A program made the position numbers and the translations under genes. From Candidatus Zhuqueibacterota bacterium (GTDB lineage: Bacteria > Zhuqueibacterota > Zhuqueibacteria > Thermofontimicrobiales > Thermofontimicrobiaceae), in NCBI GenBank assembly GCA_049322915.1, contig JBMOPW010000014.1, positions 376,983-440,982 of the forward strand: DNA of 64,000 nucleotides. Direction: 5' to 3'. The first letter of the stretch is position 1; each line of letters opens with the position of its first letter. The notes under the pieces are model-generated. The model was given only the letters and a program-made list of their open reading frames with translations, searched no databases and had not been told where the DNA came from. Positions 1,094-48,562 of the stretch are shown one piece after another.

Positions 1094-1302
1094 GGAAATT
1101 ATTCAGGTTAGCTGATTCAGAGTCCAGGGTTCAAATTTAGAATCATTTCATGATGTATATTTTGTAAAGGAATAGTCGTAACTGTACAGCCATTAAGCGG
1201 CTGGTTAGCTGACTGGTTGATTTTTGAACACCACGATCAATCGTGGGGTTGGTACAATTTTAAACCAACGCCATGCTTCAGCATGGTCACCTGAGTCGTT
1301 AC
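1094..1302. mobile_element. Decayed MITE-like element with an inner element (about 1178-1302) carrying REP-like hairpins
   Basis: 1094-1198 aligns by eye with 41083-41188. Inner ends are GTAACTGTACAG and CTGAGTCGTTAC. Internal palindromes CCACGATCAATCGTGG and CCATGCTTCAGCATGG. Confidence 0.6.
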
Positions 1303-1492
1303 AAAAATTTGATGTATTTCCTACGGCGCAGTCGGGTAGAAGTTGCAGGGAAAAATTGGAGGACTGGGTACAAGTCGGAAATAACAACTGGCAGCAGGGC
1401 GGTCGAGGCGCGCGAATTCTGGCACACCATCGGAGCAGCAATGCGCGGCGCAGCGGACTCGGTTTCTTGCCGCTGATGGAAAGCCAATCGCG

Positions 1493-2041
1493 TTACAGGC
1501 GATCGATGATGCCGAATTGCCCGACTGCTTCACGGTAAGTTCGTTGCAGGTTATGCTGAAACCCGCTTCCAAATTCAAGTCGGTAGCGGCTGAAAATGCC
1601 GTCGGTGATTATTTTATTCAAAAAGGGCATGAGAACCGCTCCGATATAAATAGGCATCGGCTCCGGAAAGATGTCGGCGAATTCTTTCGTAAGTCCGACC
1701 ACTGAATAGGCTTTGCCGGGGATCAGATTGGAAAGGAAAATGGTGCCTGCACCTGGTTCATCGAAAATGAAAAAGCGGCCGGTCACCGAGCGCTTCCAGC
1801 TATGGATGACATCCAATTTGAAATCGGAGAAGCCGGAGGGATTTTTAATAATGAATTGGTCGATCAGGTTTGGCTGGGAGAATAGCGCGAGGTGGATGGA
1901 TTTCAACTGGTCGCTATCCAGGTCGTGCAATCCGTCGATGGTGAAAATGTGCGGTATGATTCGGCGCTGGTTATTGGTGAACAGCAGCAGATTGTAGTAC
2001 AATTCAAAGAAATAATTTGCTTCATCTTTGGATAGAATCAT
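1493..2041 (-). CDS. Hypothetical protein, about 182 aa
   Basis: Start moved to ATG 2041 (MILSKDEANYFF) to avoid overlap with the upstream gene. Protein-like composition. Confidence 0.75.
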   Translation of the reverse strand: MILSKDEANYFFELYYNLLLFTNNQRRIIPHIFTIDGLHDLDSDQLKSIHLALFSQPNLIDQFIIKNPSGFSDFKLDVIHSWKRSVTGRFFIFDEPGAGTIFLSNLIPGKAYSVVGLTKEFADIFPEPMPIYIGAVLMPFLNKIITDGIFSRYRLEFGSGFQHNLQRTYREAVGQFGIIDRL

Positions 2042-2054
2042 AAGCACGTCTGGT

Positions 2055-2783
2055 TTATTTGCCGACGCCACAGCATTTTTTATATTTTTTACCGCTCCCG
2101 CACGGGCAGGGATCGTTGCGGCCAATGCGCGGTTCGTCGCGGCGATAGGTCTCTATTTTTTTCAATGCAAAAAGAGACGGATCGCTCGCGGAGACTTCGG
2201 CCGGGGTTTTGCCGCCCAATGTCGCGCGCGGAGTGGCCATCCATTGGTTGTTCAATTCCTGAAGCTGAACCTCATTGGGCATGGACGCGATGTCAATTCC
2301 CTGCTCCTGGCAATAGACACCAAAATCGGCGATCAACGCGCCCTGCGGGGATTCCATGATCTTTTTGACCTGATTCATATCGACGCCCCGGGGTAGCTTC
2401 ATGCTGCTGAGCGCTTCCATTTCAGAACTCAGTTGCGACAGATCGACCTGCGACAGGTCCACCGGCGCCTCTATCGCTTCTTCGACAGGAATCGCCTCTT
2501 CCGCGCTCTCGGTCACATCGAGCGTCTCCTCCACGCTCTCCGGCGGGGGGCCGACATGCCGCTGGATGGCTGAAAGAATGACAGTCAGTTTCTCGGCGTC
2601 CAGCTCCGCATTGTCCTGCCGGAGTTGCCCCACGATCCATGGAACGGTTTCGCCATCGGTTAATAATTCCCTGATGTCGTCCGCTTCGAATCGATCGATG
2701 GAAAATTGTTCGCAGAACTGGGTCAGTTGCTGCATCAATTCATTTAAACCTGGCTCGAATGTTGGAAGGTTTGTCAGATCCAT
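2055..2783 (-). CDS. SEC-C motif metal-binding protein
   Basis: C-terminal [19 protein letters not shown] and an acidic N-terminal region. Confidence 0.9.
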
Positions 2784-2792
2784 AGTAGTACC

Positions 2793-3305
2793 CTAATTGT
2801 CCGTGATCAACGTTGATTCAGGAGATTGGCGAAATGTGAGAATCCCCAACAAGATAGCGCCGCAGGTGATGAAAATATCAGCGGCATTGAATACCGGCCA
2901 ACTGAAACGATCATAGTAATGCAGGTGAATGAAGTCGATAACATACCCCCGCGCCAACCGCTCCAACAGATTGCCCAGCGCGCCGGAAAATATTAGCGTC
3001 AGCGACACCAGCCACCAGAGCGATTGATGGCGCACCTGCCAGGTGAGGACGGTCAGAAATATCATCGCGACCAGCGACAGCGAGTAGATGAGCCATTTCC
3101 GCAGGCCTGATTCCAGGGAGTGCAGCATGCTGAACGCAATCGCCTCGTTTTCTGTGTAGCGCAATTCGACAAAATTCTCGATGATCGTGACGGGCCGGGC
3201 GTATTCCAGCCGTTGTTTCGCCAGCCATTTGGTCGAAAGGTCGCAACTGGTGCAGAAGATGAGGATGGCCAATAAGAGTAAAATCTTTATTGTTCGTTTG
3301 TTCAA
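2793..3305 (-). CDS. lspA: Lipoprotein signal peptidase II
   Basis: DLSTK, NEAIAFS, GALGNLLER, VIDFI and FNAAD motifs. Likely TTG start at 3305 with GAAGGA upstream. Confidence 0.92.
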   Translation of the reverse strand: MNKRTIKILLLLAILIFCTSCDLSTKWLAKQRLEYARPVTIIENFVELRYTENEAIAFSMLHSLESGLRKWLIYSLSLVAMIFLTVLTWQVRHQSLWWLVSLTLIFSGALGNLLERLARGYVIDFIHLHYYDRFSWPVFNAADIFITCGAILLGILTFRQSPESTLITDN

Positions 3306-4191: not shown

Positions 4192-4313
4192 CGTGTTGAA
4201 TTCCTTCCTCTGTAAATGCTGTCCGAACGATCCGTTGACATCTTCTTGTAGCTTCGTGACTTGCTTCCTAGTGGCAAGAATACATGCCTGCTGAAGATGC
4301 TGTTTTTCTCGTC

Positions 4314-4343
4314 GCTGAAAGCTGAGAGCTGAAAGCTAATAGC
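4314..4343. repeat. Heptamer tandem repeat, four units
   Basis: GCTGAAA GCTGAGA GCTGAAA GCTAATA GC, intergenic. Confidence 0.7.
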
Positions 4344-4352
4344 TTTTTTAAA

Positions 4353-4655
4353 TTATTGAAATTCCAGTTTCAAGCCGGCAGCCAGGTTCCTGTCGGTGAC
4401 AGCGACAGTAGCGACCGTTTCGTGTCCGCACATTTCGCCCAGCGCATCTTTTGTCGAGAAAAGGATCATGGGGATATTCAGTCGCCGGCAGTCGAATTCG
4501 ATTTGCTGCTTCAATTTGTCCGGCGCGTCCAGGGCGACGATGGCCAGCGCGATGCGTTTCTTTCTGAGTAGCAGTTGAACCGCCGATTTTCCAATGATGA
4601 GGGTTCCGGCTTTTTGCGCCAGGTGCAGCAATGACATGATTTTTTCATTGTTCAA
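4353..4655 (-). CDS. ylxQ: L7Ae-family RNA-binding protein (YlxQ-like)
   Basis: SLLHLAQKAGTLIIG ... ALDAP ... TKDALGEMCG ... VAVTD. TTG start overlaps the end of ylxR. Confidence 0.85.
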   Translation of the reverse strand: MNNEKIMSLLHLAQKAGTLIIGKSAVQLLLRKKRIALAIVALDAPDKLKQQIEFDCRRLNIPMILFSTKDALGEMCGHETVATVAVTDRNLAAGLKLEFQ

Positions 4656-4914
4656 GTAAGTTGATCCATTGATATATTTCCCGGTAAAGCGACCGGGGGA
4701 CTTCGCAGCGGAACGAGGCATTGAATCCCCGTTTTTTCTCAGCCATCTGAACACAGGCTCGCCTGGGACAGACATAGGCGCCACGACCAGGTTTGTCCTG
4801 GTTTTCATCGATTTCGAATTGGCCGGTTTTTGTTTTGACAATCCGGAGCAATTCAGATTTATGTCTGGCCTGACGGCATCCCACGCAGACTCTGTGCCAG
4901 TTTGGCTGCGCCAT
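4645..4914 (-). CDS. ylxR: YlxR/RnpM family RNA-binding protein (DUF448)
   Basis: RVCVGCR ... KSELLRIV ... PGRGAYVC motifs. Confidence 0.92.
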   Translation of the reverse strand: MAQPNWHRVCVGCRQARHKSELLRIVKTKTGQFEIDENQDKPGRGAYVCPRRACVQMAEKKRGFNASFRCEVPRSLYREIYQWINLLEQ

Positions 4915-4925
4915 TCCTGCCTCGC

Positions 4926-7900
4926 TTAGCGAAGATAAATTAATTTGACTGTGTTCGAACGCATCAGGCGATTCGCCTGATGCATTTGCACCTGAGCAAA
5001 GTACACGCCGCTGCCGCAGGACTGGCCATGCGTATCCCGGCCATCCCAGAAAATTTTATGCACGCCCGGGGCAACAATATTCACCGGGATACTCACCACG
5101 ACCTGTCCCCGCAGATTGTAAACCGCCAACCGCGCATCGCCCGGCAGACTCGCTTCGATTTCAATGACTGTGACGGCATTGAAGGGATTGGGGACGTTGG
5201 GCCGAATTCGCAGCGACTGAACCGGCGCATGGCTGGCGCTTTTTCCCTCAACAATTTCGGAAGCGGCCCGCGACTGAATGCAAATATCATCGATGAACCA
5301 GCCGGCCATAGGCCTGGTCTGACTGGAGTCTGTTGCTAATCGAAAACGCAGCAGCAGAGAATCATCGCCGACGCCTGCAAATGGGTCTAAATCCACGAAC
5401 ACCTGACGCCAGTCATCCTGCGTCCCGCTCAAAGCCTCGCCGATGAACTGCCAGTTAGCCCCGCCATCCAGGCTGATCTCGGTGAAGCCGAAATCAACGC
5501 CGGCCTCGATATCATACTTTGTCCGGAAATGAAGGACGAATTGGTACAGCGAAGACCGTGGAATGGCGCCGTCTGCGTAAAGACTGGCGTTGGAATCGTT
5601 GGGATAGGGCGCGCCCGGCCCGGTCGAGATGCAATAGCTGCCGGAAAATGCTTCATTATCATCGAGCGCCCACGAGTCAGAATCCGAGCGCCACAGCGTG
5701 AGGCCATGCTCGAAATTTTCAAAACCGACGGCATAGGATTGAATGTCCGAGACGGCGCGGTTCGGAACAGTAGCGGCGTCGTACGCGGACACGTAATAGC
5801 GCACCGTATCCCCGACAGGAATCCCGGCCGGAATGGCGCCGCTGAACCAATGCGGCTCGGCCAGCGTCAGCGGCAGACTGTCGGCCCCGGTCGCGGCCGC
5901 CCAATGAAGCCATACCGAATTGGGAGCGACTGCAAGATTGTCCTCCACAAAAACGCGAATGGGTCGGGATGCCTTTTGCAGAAAGATATCAGGAAGCGGA
6001 CTGAAAAGAATGGTCGGCGCCGTCTGATCCGATCCCAACAAAAATATGAACGGCGCTGCCTCGCCGGTGACCGGCAGTGTGTGCTGATAATAGGGTGACT
6101 TCATTCCAAAATAATAGCGAACTTCGCCGACAGGAGAATTCAGTCGGATAAATTTCTGGAACTGCGAAAGGCTGACCGGAGACATGGGTGATTCTTCGTA
6201 ATCACTCATGGCGTCGGTCTTCCAGAAGAGGGAGAGCGAATTGATATCCGAGACGCGCGGCGAAAGGTCCACGGTGAAGCAGATCGAGTCTGGCGAAGTC
6301 TCGCTGTCCGCCAGGGGCGTGTGAAGCATTGGCCCCATTGCATTGAGAATCCTTTCCATCAGCTCCCGGCGGATTCTCGACGGGGCAGTTGGATCCGCGT
6401 TGCGGGAAGCATCGGCGGCCTCAAATCCGAACCCGAGGTTCAGTACGCGATGCGACTTTTCGAAAAACACACCAGCGCCCCTGTCCGAATCGTACCGGAA
6501 GCAGGAGACCGCATCCGGCATGGGTTCCAGCCAATCCGGGAATTGGAAATGGGGAGGGATATCCGGCTGGTAAATGGTGAACTCCAGCCCCTGGCCCGGC
6601 GTGCCGGGGATTCCCTGAACCAAAGCCGATCGGCTGTGATCTTCGCGGTAGTCGCTGTGCAGGTAGTGTTGATAAAAATCCACGCTCGATTCGGAGAACT
6701 GGTTATTGCCGTCTCCGCCCGGATCCGCCAGGTCCCAGCCGATATCCTGCCCGGAGAGGAACAGATGACCTCCCTGATTCAGATAATCCTGAAGCGCCAT
6801 GCGGTCTTCCGGAGACAGGCTGGGAAAAGCCCACTCGCAGAACCAGATCACCGTTGGAAAGTGGCTCAGAGTCCGGGCCGGCGGAGTACCCAGCCGGGAA
6901 TGATCCCAGATCAGAAATGGGACGTTGAGCGAGGAAAGCGCGGTGGAATAAAAGCCCTCCACGTTTCGATAGCCATCATCGTCGTCGACCAGCAGCACAG
7001 CGCGTTTGCCGATCATCACGGAGATGGTGTCGCTGCCAACCTTGCCCTGGTCGGTGCGATGCTGGCAGAGTAACTGTGCGACGTGCGGCTCAGCGTTGGA
7101 CGAAATGGCAAAGCGCAGGATATTGTGCACGGCAAAAACGGTATCCGGGGGAATCTGATTCAGTCGCGAGTAGCCTTCGGTGATGCGGATCTGGTCATCG
7201 CTGGTGGTGAGCGTCACTTCGAGAAAAGACGCCGGGCTGATCGAGTAATTCCGAAACCACAGATCGAGTCCAATTTCTTCTCCCCGCTCGATGAGAAAAT
7301 TGCCGTTGCCCCATACCGCATCGGATACGGCCGCTTTGAAGAACTCGATGTTAGCCGGGATTTCATCCTGGACGTCTTCGGTCAATGCGCGATAGGCATT
7401 GACCCGGCCGGCGCCCAACAAATTGGTATAGCCGGGATTGACCGGGTCGATTGGGTCGGCGGTCAAAATCAATTGCCGTTTCAATTGCAGGGCATTGAAT
7501 GTGGGGAACTGGCTTTTCATCAGTCCCAGTACACCAGCCACGACAGGGCTGGCCATGGAACTGCCGGACATCTCTCCGTAGCTGCCGCGGTCGACGGGGA
7601 TGGTGCTCAAAATTCCGGGCCTGCCTGTGCTCTTGTCGCCGCCGGGAGCGGACAGGTCAATGAATGTCCCATAAGTGGCGTAGCTGGCTTTTTCATCGCG
7701 ATCGTTCACAGCAGCCACGGCCACCACGTGGACATAGCTGGCCGGGTAAAAATTGGCGTTCATGTTGGTATTGCCGCCGGCAGCGATGATGATGCAACCC
7801 CGATGAGCGGCGTAGTCGATGATGTCCTGTTCGAACTGGGAGTATGCGCCGGACCGTCCCCAGCTCAGATTGATGATATGCGCGCCATTATCCGCCGCGT

Positions 7901-44253: not shown

Positions 44254-45321
44254 ATGTCCGATTTTGGTCGCGAAGAATTTGATCGCTACTCGCGGCAGAC
44301 GAATTTCGTCGGCCTGGGTCGTTCCGAACAGGAATTATTGGCGAAAAGCCGCGTGTTGATTCTGGGCTGCGGCGGCCTTGGCTCAGCTTCGGCGTCGCTA
44401 TTGGCGCGCGCCGGGGTGGGCTATCTTCGATTGGCTGACCGCGATTTCATGGAATTGAGCAATCTGCAGCGTCAAATTTTATACGATGAACACGATGTCA
44501 AAGAAGGGCTGCCCAAAGTGATCGCTGCTCAGCGGAAGTTGCGCGAAATTAACGCCAATACAAGAGTCGAACCCGTGATCGCGGATGTGAATCGCACGAA
44601 TATCGAGTCGCTCATTGAGGGTGTTCATCTGGTGATAGATGGTTCGGATAATTTTGAAACGCGCTATCTTTTGAATGAGGCCTGCGTCAAACACAATGTA
44701 CCCTGGATTTATGGTGCAGCCGTTGAGTCGTACGGCATGTGCATGAATATCATCCCTCGGAAAACCGCCTGCCTCCATTGCGTCATGGAACACGTGCCCC
44801 GGCCAAATGCGACTCCAGCCAGCGAGACAGAGGGAGTTCTGGGGCCGATTGTCACCATGATCGCTTCGATTCAATCGGCGGAAGCGATGAAGATACTGAC
44901 CCATAAAATGGATGCATTGAATAAAGCAATCATCGTCATCGATCTGTGGCAGAACAGCTATCAGGCCATCGATATCGCCGCCCTCCGTGAGACGGTGAAT
45001 TGCCCTGTTTGCAGTCAGAGCAAATTTGAATATTTATCCGGTCGATTTGGAAATTTGTACACCAGAGTGGTCGGTCAAAACGCGGTGCAGATTATCCCGT
45101 TTGAAACCCAGAAATTGGATTTGCCCCGGCTGGCCATTGAGTTGGCGTCGCAGGGGAGTGTCAAAGTGAATGAGTACGTTGTCCGCATTGAAATTGACCG
45201 ATGTGAACTGTCGATTTTTCAGGATGGCCGAACTGTCGTCAGCGGGACCGCGGATACGGGCATTGCCCGGAATTATTACACAAAATACGTGAAGCAGTGT
45301 GTGGATTCCCATCAGCAATAA
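44254..45321 (+). CDS. ThiF/MoeB family adenylyltransferase
   Basis: RYSRQ, GCGGLG, DRDFMELSNLQRQ, DNFETR and two CxxC motifs. Confidence 0.92.
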   Translation: MSDFGREEFDRYSRQTNFVGLGRSEQELLAKSRVLILGCGGLGSASASLLARAGVGYLRLADRDFMELSNLQRQILYDEHDVKEGLPKVIAAQRKLREINANTRVEPVIADVNRTNIESLIEGVHLVIDGSDNFETRYLLNEACVKHNVPWIYGAAVESYGMCMNIIPRKTACLHCVMEHVPRPNATPASETEGVLGPIVTMIASIQSAEAMKILTHKMDALNKAIIVIDLWQNSYQAIDIAALRETVNCPVCSQSKFEYLSGRFGNLYTRVVGQNAVQIIPFETQKLDLPRLAIELASQGSVKVNEYVVRIEIDRCELSIFQDGRTVVSGTADTGIARNYYTKYVKQCVDSHQQ

Positions 45322-45354
45322 AAAAGCAGAATCCTGATTCAGGTTCTGCTTTTT
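45320..45354. terminator. Bidirectional rho-independent terminator
   Basis: AAAAAGCAGAA(T)CCTGA / TCAGGTTCTGCTTTTT. Confidence 0.85.
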
Positions 45355-45424
45355 GTATAAAAATTGGTTAGCCTGTAACCGCTTTCGGCAATAAAATCCA
45401 GCGAAATTAACTTCCTAATAAGAC

Positions 45425-45765
45425 ATAGAACACGGATGACACAGATGACGCGGATTCGCACGGATTTCTTTTGATTCAATAAGCAAAAAGATTTATAAAA
45501 ATCAATTCATTGTATCAAAATTTATGGCGAACTTAAATGACCAAATCTCAATGGATTCCATAAGTTTTTTATCTGCGTTCATCTGTGTCATCCGCGTAAT
45601 CCGCGTTCTATTTCTTTTTTGGAGGCTCAGTTCGCCAGTATTTTATAGAACACAGATGTCACAGATGACGCGGTTTCGCACGGATTTCTTTTTAGTCAAA
45701 TCTCAATGGATCCTAAAAGTTTTTATCTGCGTTCATCTGTGTCATCCGCGTAATCCGCGTTCTAT
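45425..45765. repeat. Two tandem palindromic elements (45425-45611 and 45645-45765) made of ~9-nt CACAGATGA-like units
   Basis: Each begins ATAGAACAC(G/A)GATG and ends ATCTGCGTTCATCTGTGTCATCCGCGTAATCCGCGTTCTAT. Copy 2 is 66 nt shorter internally. Confidence 0.92.
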
Positions 45766-45933
45766 TTCTTTTTGACTCTGGCTTGTCCAGGTTTATTTCC
45801 CATCAATGAAAATTGCCGGTAACTTTATAGCCTGTCAGGAATCCCTGCCATGCTGCCCGGTTTTGCCCTCCATGAACTTGAGAAATCAACACCCTGCTAA
45901 TTTCAATTGAATTAAAATCAGGTATCAAGTGAA

Positions 45934-46170
45934 TTAATTTTCAACCTGCGGTTGCTTCTTGCCCCGAGCTTTTTCGATAATGCGATTCAGCTCCGCCACT
46001 ATTTCATCGATATTCTCAAATCCCATCAATCGCGCTTGCAACTCAAGCGTTCCCCATGCGGGTCGCCCGCCTCAGGAGAAGCAGTATAAACCCAGATGAT
46101 GCAACGGATCAATCAACTCCGGATATTGATAGACTATTTCTGAAAAACTCGTCTGCTTGTTGATGTACAT
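45934..46170 (-). CDS. DUF1858-like protein with CxxU motif, candidate selenoprotein, 78 aa
   Basis: Manual translation MYINKQTSFSEIVYQYPELIDPLHHLGLYCFS(TGA)GGRPAWGTLELQARLMGFENIDEIVAELNRIIEKARGKKQPQVEN*. CAGGAG upstream. TGA at 46072-46074 occupies the second Cys position of the family CxxC. Confidence 0.8.
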
Positions 46171-46252
46171 CGTTCTGCTCCTGTCAGATCATATTTCAAG
46201 ATTTCGTTGATTAACCTATTCGATGGTGGAGCAGTGAAAAGGATTCAGGAAA

Positions 46253-47419
46253 TTATTTTTTCCCCCATTTTTTAAGAAGCGCCTGAGTGTCGCTGAAAAA
46301 TTGACTCTCCGCAGTGATGGCTGCCAGTTGGTTGGCCGCCAGTTCCCGCTGTCCGTTTAGTCCGTAAGCCAGCCCAAGATAATACACCACCCGATCCAAT
46401 CCGTTCAGACGGTATTTCGAGTTCACCGCATCTGCCTGTTGCAGTGAGGAAATTGCCTCCTGCAAATGTTTGGCTCTGACTTTTTTCTTTGTCTCTTTTT
46501 TCGAGTAAAGCGCTAAATGAGATAGCCCATTGTAAAAGTACAGATCCCGAAAATAGGGCGTGAACTCCGGCGCCACCTTCTTTGTCTCGAGGTCGGCCAT
46601 AGTAGCCTCGAGATTCTCGAAAATGTAAATGGCGGACTCGTATTCCTGAATTGTATAATAACCGACGCCGTTTTTGAAATCACGGATGAATGCGAACAGC
46701 AGGGGATCCCTGGTCGCTTCTATATCCTGGTCCACACCCCGAAATGTGCTGGAGTCGTATTCGTAGGGAATCCGTGTTTCAGAAAGAAACCGGGAGTAAT
46801 CATTCCTTTGAAAGAGTGAATCGTAGCTCAAAAGGAACAGAATGACCGCCGTGGAAACAGCGGAAATTAGCAGTGCGAAACGCGGCGATAGACGTGGAAT
46901 TTTCAGACTGTCCCGGAGGGACTCGAAACGATGTCTCCAACTCTCGGCTGGTCGGAGGGCATTGGTCATCGCTTCCGGTCCTGCCTGTTCCCGCGCATTC
47001 AGAATGTCGCGGAGAATGGCTTCGTTGTCCTTCAACTCAACGTGGGCCAGGTCGGCATCCGGTTCAGGGGATAGCTCCGGCAGGGCGCGCTGCAATTGAT
47101 CGAGAACGCGCTTGTAAAATAGCGGCGAATGAATAAGCCCGTGTCGGAATTGGCGCGCATCGCCTGCACTGAAATTGCCTGTGAACAGCCGCTCCAGCAA
47201 TTGTTCAACCTGACTGAACGACGCATCGGGCAAATTGGTCCGCGCTGGCTGCGCTTCGGCGTCCGCCGGCGGACTTGCATTTTCAATCAATTCAAAAAGC
47301 AATTGGTACAGCGGATTTCCCTCGCGAATTTTCCTGATGCTCTCCTGCGCGGAAAAATCGCTGTCGCCGTTCAAAAAAGCAGCTATCTCATGATGGAGTA
47401 TATCGCGTCGATTTTTCAT
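46253..47419 (-). CDS. Membrane-anchored anti-sigma-like protein with C-terminal TPR region
   Basis: Central TM (FALLISAVSTAVILFLL), TPR-like YFYNGLSHL and YYLGLAYGL. ATGA overlap with the upstream gene. Confidence 0.7.
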   Translation of the reverse strand: MKNRRDILHHEIAAFLNGDSDFSAQESIRKIREGNPLYQLLFELIENASPPADAEAQPARTNLPDASFSQVEQLLERLFTGNFSAGDARQFRHGLIHSPLFYKRVLDQLQRALPELSPEPDADLAHVELKDNEAILRDILNAREQAGPEAMTNALRPAESWRHRFESLRDSLKIPRLSPRFALLISAVSTAVILFLLSYDSLFQRNDYSRFLSETRIPYEYDSSTFRGVDQDIEATRDPLLFAFIRDFKNGVGYYTIQEYESAIYIFENLEATMADLETKKVAPEFTPYFRDLYFYNGLSHLALYSKKETKKKVRAKHLQEAISSLQQADAVNSKYRLNGLDRVVYYLGLAYGLNGQRELAANQLAAITAESQFFSDTQALLKKWGKK

Positions 47420-47823
47420 TTTGCTTTCATGTCCACGAGTTCTTTTTGTTTATAATAGTAATTTCTCATTACCTGGCTGAAGTCCTCAAAGCATCGATAG
47501 CAGGTATTGAGATGGCTGAAGATGCGTTCGCAATTGCCCTGCGCATTTTTTTTCGGAGAACCAAAGGCGAGAAATTCCAGATAGAAATCGATATGGCCGC
47601 CGAGAAAATTGGTCTCCCCGTTGCACATGGTGTCCGGTATTTCAGCAAATATATCGGCTGCATAGTCCCGCTGCTGAAGTTCGAGCATGCGATTTCGCAC
47701 CTGGGCCAATCCATCCGCTTCATGATCGGCCAGAATCGAAGGATGATTCGGCGCTCCGTTCGTTCGCTCATATTCCAGGTAAGCTAAAATTTGTCCAAGT
47801 ATTCGGTTTGAAATCATGTCCAT
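47416..47823 (-). CDS. Soluble protein with zinc anti-sigma (ZAS)-like HxxxCxxC motif
   Basis: SHLNTCYRC motif, and it lies directly downstream of an ECF sigma gene. Confidence 0.7.
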   Translation of the reverse strand: MDMISNRILGQILAYLEYERTNGAPNHPSILADHEADGLAQVRNRMLELQQRDYAADIFAEIPDTMCNGETNFLGGHIDFYLEFLAFGSPKKNAQGNCERIFSHLNTCYRCFEDFSQVMRNYYYKQKELVDMKAK

Positions 47824-47883
47824 TCTGTCGGGTTATTTCCGGAATTTAGGTTGTGTCACGTTGAACGAACCGTCCCCCTTCAT

Positions 47884-47919
47884 TTATAGAGACGGATTTC
47901 TGATAAATTCTCTCGACAC
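47884..47919 (-). promoter_or_regulatory. Putative ECF-dependent promoter, copy A
   Basis: GTGtcGAGAGAAT-N15-CTCTATAA, matching copy B. Confidence 0.65.
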
Positions 47920-47920
47920 C

Positions 47921-48562
47921 TTACTCCTTTTGCCCTGGAACATTGAGTTGCTGCCGGATCCGGTTGACGACAACATCGACAGCGTGCGGCTCCATGCTTT
48001 TCAAACAGGGATGATTCTTTTGCATGGGCGCTGAAAAATCGGCCCAGACATAGAGGAGAAAGACGTGAACATCCCGTTCGAGGTTGCGCTTTTTCGCGCC
48101 CGATGCGCTGCGCAGCCTGGCGACGATGGCTTCGTAAAGCTCCCAGCGCGTGTCAAAATCCAGGTCAATGAGATATTCAATGAACGTATCGATTTCCGTC
48201 TCCGAGAGGACCCGGGTAAAATGGCTTTGAATGAAACGACCGGTGGACCGGCTGCAAATAGTCGCCAGCCAGGATAAAAACATCTTTTCATTATCCCGCG
48301 CGCGGAAATCCTTCAGTGCTTTGCATGCATTGTTGCACAACACCATGATCACTTCAGAAAAAATATCGTTGACCGTCTCGGAATACTGGATATTCAATCG
48401 GGGCACATTCCATTTCCTGCAACTGCGCGCCACGTGATTATAAATGAACAGCTTGTACCGTTCAATGAATTGCCGCCATGCATGTTCATAGTCTGCACTG
48501 TCCGGGTGACTGCAATCATCGATCAACTGCTGAAATGAAAAGGTTGGGTCGTTCTGATTCAT
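47921..48562 (-). CDS. ECF sigma-70 family factor
   Basis: Region 2-like AWRQFIERY ... VNDIFSEV ... FLSWLATICSR. Divergent region 4 (ERDVHVFLL ... AVDVVVNRIRQQL). Confidence 0.78.
   Translation of the reverse strand: MNQNDPTFSFQQLIDDCSHPDSADYEHAWRQFIERYKLFIYNHVARSCRKWNVPRLNIQYSETVNDIFSEVIMVLCNNACKALKDFRARDNEKMFLSWLATICSRSTGRFIQSHFTRVLSETEIDTFIEYLIDLDFDTRWELYEAIVARLRSASGAKKRNLERDVHVFLLYVWADFSAPMQKNHPCLKSMEPHAVDVVVNRIRQQLNVPGQKE

Follow-up and report, generated by a model that had tools for sequence, protein, structure and literature searches.

The locus and its surroundings

The window, which is the whole 64,000-nt stretch of DNA that was analyzed, carries on its minus strand a short gene of the DUF1858 type whose reading frame contains a single in-frame TGA. 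The gene is bounded by an ATG with a Shine-Dalgarno-like sequence on one side and a TAA on the other, and a small hairpin is predicted a short distance 3' of the TGA. The features are as follows, in the direction of transcription after the gene itself:

45934..46170, minus strand: candidate selenoprotein gene, complete, 78 codons plus TAA; DUF1858-type single domain with a C30-F-S-U33 motif
46178..46182, minus strand: Shine-Dalgarno-like AGGAG, 7 nt 5' of the ATG at 46170
46170-46168, minus strand: start codon ATG, read from the sequence
46081..46083, minus strand: TGC codon for Cys30, the first residue of CxxU; this Cys is invariant in all 30 aligned Sec and Cys forms
46072..46074, minus strand: in-frame TGA, codon 33, putatively read as selenocysteine (Sec); TGA in 18/18 order-level orthologs
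46033..46049, minus strand: predicted bacterial SECIS core; stem CGCUUG/CAAGCG of 6 bp, loop AGUUG of 5 nt
45936-45934, minus strand: stop codon TAA, which ends the candidate selenoprotein gene

Translation of the minus strand gives a proximal part of 32 sense codons, the last three of which are TGC-TTC-TCC (C30-F-S), and a distal part of 45 sense codons, which begins with GGRPAWGTLELQARLMGFENIDEIVAELN after the TGA and continues until the TAA. The read-through product is 78 residues long, with GGRPAWGTLELQA directly after C30-F-S-U33. The first-pass annotation had described a ribosome-binding site, 32 codons, a TGA in C-F-S-TGA, and 45 further codons without naming a strand; every one of these elements is present, and the sequence places them on the minus strand. 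A plus-strand reading of 45934..46170 was tried and has no sensible frame. The annotation was also right that ORF calling misses the gene, as table 11 splits it into only two ORFs of 32 aa and 35 aa. Purine-rich motifs of the GGAG/AAGGA type occur at the equivalent upstream position in most orthologs, and a promoter and terminator scan of 45300-46400 returned nothing above chance on the minus strand. Over 46007-46179, a DNA contig from an independent study is identical to the window except at 46108, which makes an assembly error at this place less likely. A 272-nt contig (45805-46076) from a sequencing run presumed to be RNA does not connect the two sides of the TGA.

The neighbors of the gene in the window are three minus-strand ORFs, a converging ThiF-family gene (44254-45321), and an amidohydrolase. 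The three consecutive minus-strand ORFs lie upstream (213, 135, and 388 aa; 46253-48562) and have no Pfam match at E <= 0.001. This arrangement is common only to the same-genus genome, and clustering of the neighbors at other loci, in which locus counts are inflated about 2-fold by duplicate named-genome loci of the Sec clade, gave no common partner. A thioredoxin gene stands directly upstream on the same strand in 2/18 genomes, a class-V aminotransferase is upstream in 3 genomes, and a transketolase-like gene is downstream in 4. The candidate selenoprotein gene is probably monocistronic.

Two side observations concern the flanking ThiF-family gene. Between it and the candidate selenoprotein gene, at 45425-45775 of the window, there are two tandem repeat copies, which are direct repeats of 55-63 nt with 91-94% identity and 19-nt inverted arms. 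Pieces of the repeat, mostly 30-55 nt long, recur elsewhere in the genome at about 50 sites, with a total of 52 matches, and the repeat looks like a dispersed element of the REP/MITE type. The ThiF ortholog of the congener (4300-5356 of its locus) is split into two overlapping ORFs, which could be a frameshift or an assembly error.

Recurrence of the TGA, the downstream hairpin, and the selenocysteine machinery

The read-through protein served as the query against the window's genome and 60 relatives, and stops inside the matches were counted. A match was found in 35/61 genomes, and the best match carries exactly one TGA in 18 of them, which are the window's genome and 17 of the 20 relatives from the same order (the congener, 11/12 other genomes of the family, and 5/7 other genomes of the order). 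The three same-order genomes without a match are 56%, 74%, and 82% complete. The TGA-form orthologs show 54-78% protein identity, and the TGA always falls at the aligned position, within CFSU in 17 genomes and within CYSU in 1. Outside the order, 17 of the 40 remaining class genomes have a match, and 12 of the 12 sequences extracted read C-L-x-C-G-E-P, with Cys at the second position of the pair; the lone "TGA" counted in a class genome (G049) is the own stop codon of that Cys-form gene.

Wider scans gave the same picture. Named genomes contributed 80 loci, 13 of which belong to the Sec clade, all with TGA and all duplicating sequences of the 18 orthologs; the remaining 67 are Cys forms from Ignavibacteriota, Bacteroidota, Kryptoniota, Calditrichota, and others. 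A single alignment column accordingly pairs 18 TGA forms with 79 Cys forms, which are more distant homologs, and the pairing of Cys and TGA that the first-pass annotation had proposed to look for is thus present. The metagenome scan produced 18 loci. True orthologs account for 11 of them, with TGA in 11/11, and 7 of these 11 are new distinct sequences. The other seven metagenome loci, which match the pattern with a real Cys codon, were rejected as spurious, high-GC sequences. No Cys version of the Sec clade was found in the metagenome scan or in a collection of 5.8 billion proteins. Such recurrence of a TGA with an open distal frame, in 18/18 orthologs and in 11/11 metagenome orthologs, is far more than chance would produce.

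Beyond the TGA, the frame is open in 18/18 orthologs, with no stops or frameshifts. The alignment of the Sec clade has 22 invariant columns, 11 of which come after the TGA; the invariant post-Sec residues are G34, G35, P37, A38, W39, G40, L42, L44, A46, L61, and N62. Judged by this pattern, the distal part is under protein-level selection and is not decaying, decay of the distal half being what the first-pass annotation had named as the mark of a nonsense pseudogene. In a quick maximum-likelihood tree of 97 rows (IQ-TREE), which is unrooted and was built from few alignment columns with a quick search only, the 18 Sec forms are split off by a single long branch with an SH-aLRT of 100.

A second, weaker match without the motif TGA is present in 11/18 of the Sec-form genomes. 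The Cys paralog in the window's genome is 70 aa long and has the form CIRC. It sits on contig 32 in a row of genes on the same strand (1284-3081 of the locus), in which a 67-aa ORF without a family, the DUF1858 gene, an OsmC-like gene, an ECF sigma factor, and a Cys-rich 81-aa ORF follow one another. The Cys-rich ORF may be an anti-sigma factor, and the row as a whole may be an oxidative-stress module.

At the RNA level, we aligned a 75-nt stretch surrounding the TGA from each of the 18 orthologs. A conserved 17-nt hairpin, CGCUUG-AGUUG-CAAGCG (46049-46033), has a stem that begins 22 nt and a loop that begins 28 nt past the UGA. The hairpin is nearly invariant in the 18 orthologs, with a loop that reads A/C-G-U-U-G/A, and the 7 additional distinct metagenome sequences keep it as well (n = 25 in total). 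Standard pairs fill 97.2% of the 108 cells in the 18 orthologs, as compared with 19-56% when the partner is slid by 1-3 columns. In the same 18 orthologs no pair is altered on both sides, and shuffles reach the observed score; this covariation control is uninformative because the hairpin hardly varies, and in the absence of compensatory changes the hairpin is supported by conservation and not by covariation. The informative signal is that synonymous change is suppressed exactly over the hairpin. Third-position entropy across the hairpin codons T-L-E/A-L-Q-A is 0, 0.31, 0.31, 0.65, 0.80, and 0.31 bit, whereas four-fold sites elsewhere in the gene (V, P, G, G, P, A, G, G) have 1.35-1.93 bit. In the 12 Cys forms, from which the hairpin is absent, third positions of the matching T, L, and E/A codons are free to vary (1.86, 1.25, and 1.46 bit).

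The consensus model of the bacterial SECIS, in the form summarized in PMC13188914, has a loop of 3-9 nt, a stem of 4-16 bp, a G within the first two loop positions that is often followed by U, a UGA-to-loop spacing of 16-37 nt, and a minimum free energy of <= -7.5 kcal/mol. The geometry of the hairpin lies inside these ranges, with a 5-nt loop, a 6-bp stem, a 28-nt spacing, and a G at loop position 2 followed by U. The 17-nt hairpin by itself folds at -6.5 kcal/mol, which falls short of the published limit of -7.5 kcal/mol; its 61-nt context folds at -23 kcal/mol (z = -1.94), and 9/200 shuffles fold equally well. The first-pass annotation had seen the SECIS in a GC-rich segment directly 3' of the UGA. 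That segment does fold, with GCGGG/CCCGC inside a UUCUCC/GGGGAA outer stem, but it is not conserved: as SECIS candidates, AGGCG/CGCUU and GCGGG/CCCGC retain only 2 pairs in RNAalifold, and third-position entropies there are 1.6-1.9 bits. The annotation had therefore picked the wrong hairpins, and the conserved element is the next one, at 46049-46033.

The window's genome encodes the machinery for selenocysteine. The genes selA (561.6 bits) and selB (364.6 bits) are adjacent on contig 2, and selD is present twice, outside the window in both cases (contig 2, 57472-58398; contig 14, 562220-563146). One selD has an in-frame TGA in a KCAGU motif, as in a Sec-containing SelD, with a hairpin about 20 nt downstream; the other lies within a 736-codon open frame, which suggests a fusion protein. 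A tRNA-Sec on contig 34 (304657-304751) scores 63 bits with the Rfam model and is called SeC with anticodon tca by ARAGORN. All four genes whose presence the first-pass annotation had made a check (selA, selB, selC, and selD) are found in the genome, with all scores above curated cut-offs. Across the class sample, selA occurs in 55/61 genomes, and in 17/18 genomes with the TGA form, the exception being 73% complete. The portions of a KSB1 MAG survey that deal with these genes report selA, selB, and selD, state that selC is absent, and name no selenoproteins. The stated absence of selC probably reflects annotation limits.

Fold, proposed mechanism, and competing explanations

The read-through protein matches Pfam DUF1858 (PF08984) with 23.9 bits and an E value of 4.6e-5, the gathering score being 32.2. 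At E <= 0.01, PF08984 matches all 30 aligned Sec and Cys forms, and its gathering score is passed by 3 of the 14 other Sec-clade orthologs scanned (33.4-39.9 bits). The alignment profile matches the N-terminal domain of ScdA (9r7j, E 1.5e-4) and 2k53 (E 1.6e-4), and also 2k5e. In an AF2 model (pLDDT 82.1) the chain forms four helices, two of which (42-48 and 54-71) are supplied by the distal half; confidence is lowest in block 31-40, the loop after Sec (pLDDT 67). In a Foldseek search of the PDB, no match reached E <= 0.001, and 2K53 was the sole match with a probability of 1.00 (TM 0.71/0.78, E 0.098); in the alignments, C30 and U33 fall on the CxxC of both 2K53 and the Cys homologs. The protein is a divergent DUF1858 member, borderline by sequence and clear by its predicted fold, and the DUF1858-like CxxU assignment of the first-pass annotation agrees with the Pfam match, the profile matches, and the 2K53 fold alike. 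The protein also resembles the subfamily of NCBIfam TIGR03980 ("hybrid cluster protein-associated redox disulfide domain"), but we do not place it there, with 25.9 bits against a cut-off of 44.95 and no hybrid cluster protein among the 7 neighboring ORFs scanned. As a single domain of 78 aa that scores 13 bits with NF009777 (cut-off 259), it does not belong to ScdA/YtfE (RIC) either.

Very probably, in our view, the locus is functional and encodes a DUF1858-family selenoprotein of 78 residues, with the UGA recoded as Sec. In the mechanism that the anatomy of the gene suggests, codon 33 would be recoded as selenocysteine when SelB, carrying Sec-tRNA(Sec), binds the 17-nt hairpin that the mRNA forms 22 nt beyond the UGA and brings Sec to the ribosome. 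The product would be a small four-helix domain in which, according to the predicted fold, Cys30 and Sec33 come together in a loop or short helix between helices 2 and 3, and the two residues could cycle between the thiol/selenol and selenenylsulfide states. The gene would represent a Sec-only paralog lineage common to one KSB1 order, next to an ordinary CxxC DUF1858 paralog in the same genome.

What the protein does is a separate question, and we give an even chance to a redox role, in which it would serve as a small carrier or oxidoreductase during oxidative or nitrosative stress and would probably be recycled by thioredoxin. The thioredoxin gene upstream of two orthologs, the OsmC-like gene after the Cys paralog, and the published ties of DUF1858 genes to the NnrR and PerRB regulons would suit this reading. 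Since the neighborhood is varied and a thioredoxin gene is adjacent in 2/18 genomes, gene context lends this functional reading little weight. Another possible role, which we hold to be the less likely of the two, is that the protein is a genuine selenoprotein whose Cys30 and Sec33 form a metal, Fe-S, or small-ligand site for iron or NO handling instead of cycling between redox states; the pair might then ligate a metal or other ligand, by analogy with what has been suggested for the N-terminal domain of ScdA/YtfE. Among solved structures, the profile indeed matches best the N-terminal domain of ScdA, a protein of iron-sulfur cluster repair, and the UGG of the clade resembles the CCGG of ScdA in the profile alignment. 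In their relevant parts, three papers connect DUF1858 genes with nitrate respiration and with the regulons of NnrR and PerRB, assigning no biochemical function there, and induction together with denitrification or NO regulons would suit a ligand site. However, the protein has no di-iron hemerythrin-like domain, the ScdA_N model matches 2/30 members and those weakly, the nearest NCBIfam model is named for a redox disulfide domain, and the thioredoxin and OsmC neighbors point to thiol redox chemistry.

The remaining alternatives dispute the Sec residue itself. A standard amino acid (Trp, Gly, or Cys) might be inserted at the UGA, through a genome-wide reassignment like that of codes 4 and 25 or through local near-cognate suppression. 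The four matches in the collection of 5.8 billion proteins, all of which have W at the Sec position (4/4), would fit such a code, but they come from contigs of 556-1118 nt and are most simply explained as gene-caller artifacts, apparently from the use of a table with TGA as Trp on short contigs. TGA also terminates 14/35 long open frames in the window and 5/18 of the Sec-form genes, and as it ends so many ordinary frames, there is no general reassignment. Moreover, the codon aligns with a redox Cys and not with Trp or Gly, it is followed by a conserved hairpin that fits the SECIS rules, and the full Sec machinery is present in the genome. Together these points make a reading of UGA as another amino acid very improbable.

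A slightly fainter prospect is that termination at the UGA is the normal outcome, yielding a 32-residue peptide, with the downstream conservation being regulatory and Sec at most a minor product. Bacterial Sec insertion competes with release factor 2, and the hairpin shows no covariation, both of which would be compatible with frequent termination. However, amino acid conservation reaches as far as L61 and N62, 30 codons past the hairpin, the DUF1858 fold is complete only with helices 42-48 and 54-71 of the distal half, and a 32-residue fragment would be without half of the domain. A nonsense pseudogene or a sequencing or assembly error with an untranslated distal half, to which the cutting of the gene into 32-aa and 35-aa pieces by ORF calling might point, is next to impossible given the same TGA in 18/18 orthologs of 54-78% identity and in 7 metagenome sequences, the 45 open distal codons that hold half of the invariant residues, and the independent DNA contig that reproduces the region; nor can the orthologs be copies of one contaminating sequence, as they differ at 22-46% of residues.

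Novelty and comparison with known systems

The recoded DUF1858 protein proposed here belongs to a family already on record. Tables in two reviews list the "DUF1858 domain-containing protein," with a CxxU motif and the exemplar WP_012065717.1, as a catalogued prokaryotic selenoprotein family (Zhang et al. 2022, PMC9312934; Zhang et al. 2026, PMC13188914), and the guess of the first-pass annotation that Sec forms might already be catalogued is borne out by them. Both reviews, in these entries, credit Zhang and Gladyshev 2008 and Peng et al. 2016 for the family; the name DUF1858 is absent from the main texts of Zhang and Gladyshev 2008 (GOS) and Peng et al. 2016 (ISME J). A full-text literature search for DUF1858 together with selenoprotein returned the two reviews only, and no description of a selenoproteome for KSB1 was found in the literature. 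The gene is a new lineage-specific member of this catalogued family, and what is new is a clade of Sec-only paralogs across one order of KSB1 (Zhuqueibacterota) that gene callers have missed. A bolder reading, to which we give less than even odds, is that the KSB1 clade goes back to a Cys-to-Sec conversion of its own, apart from the catalogued ones. The result would be an obligately Sec-dependent paralog (CFSUGG, the insertion, and a frozen 17-nt SECIS) that took on a distinct function and has existed side by side with the ordinary CxxC form from a time before the order radiated. In that case, the two paralogs together would amount to a natural experiment on the role of the Cys pair in DUF1858 and ScdA_N.

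Nothing here alters what is known in kind about selenoproteins. The practical consequence is for annotation: gene callers lose the gene in every genome examined, and the collection of 5.8 billion proteins holds only the 4 Trp-mistranslated entries, so that KSB1 proteomes are left without a conserved, putatively redox-active protein. For the use of Sec in KSB1, a tRNA-Sec and a conserved candidate client gene can now be set beside the selA, selB, and selD without selC in the relevant portions of the MAG survey. The invariant 17-nt hairpin is a compact candidate for the SelB-binding element of the lineage, and the presence of a Sec-only paralog and a Cys paralog in one genome could help to assign a function to DUF1858.

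The archetype of the bacterial SECIS is the element of E. coli fdhF. Compared with the consensus bacterial SECIS (the Zhang and Gladyshev model, as given in PMC13188914), the hairpin in the window has the same position within the coding region just 3' of the UGA, but it is very short, with an almost invariant core and a weaker fold. It is also unlike the SECIS of selD from its own genome in sequence, the selD hairpin having a GGA-type loop about 20 nt from the UGA.

At the protein level, the gene shares with the catalogued DUF1858 selenoproteins the Pfam domain, the Sec at the second position of the pair, and the small single-domain form, and it is set apart from them by the long branch and by its KSB1 host phylum. 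Relative to its own Cys relatives, the clade has a one-residue insertion after Sec, with UGGxPAWG in place of CGEPxWG. The stand-alone NMR structures of DUF1858 proteins, 2K53 (Clostridium thermocellum), 2K5E, and 2FI0, agree in length class, in the place of the CxxC, and, for 2K53, in fold; they have Cys where Sec is predicted here, and identity is about 21%. The ScdA_N domain (PF04405; 9r7j and 9j47) of ScdA/YtfE is a homologous helical domain, likewise with paired Cys followed by GG. However, ScdA has a C-terminal di-iron domain and no Sec, whereas the protein in the window would carry Sec in a single domain without the di-iron part.
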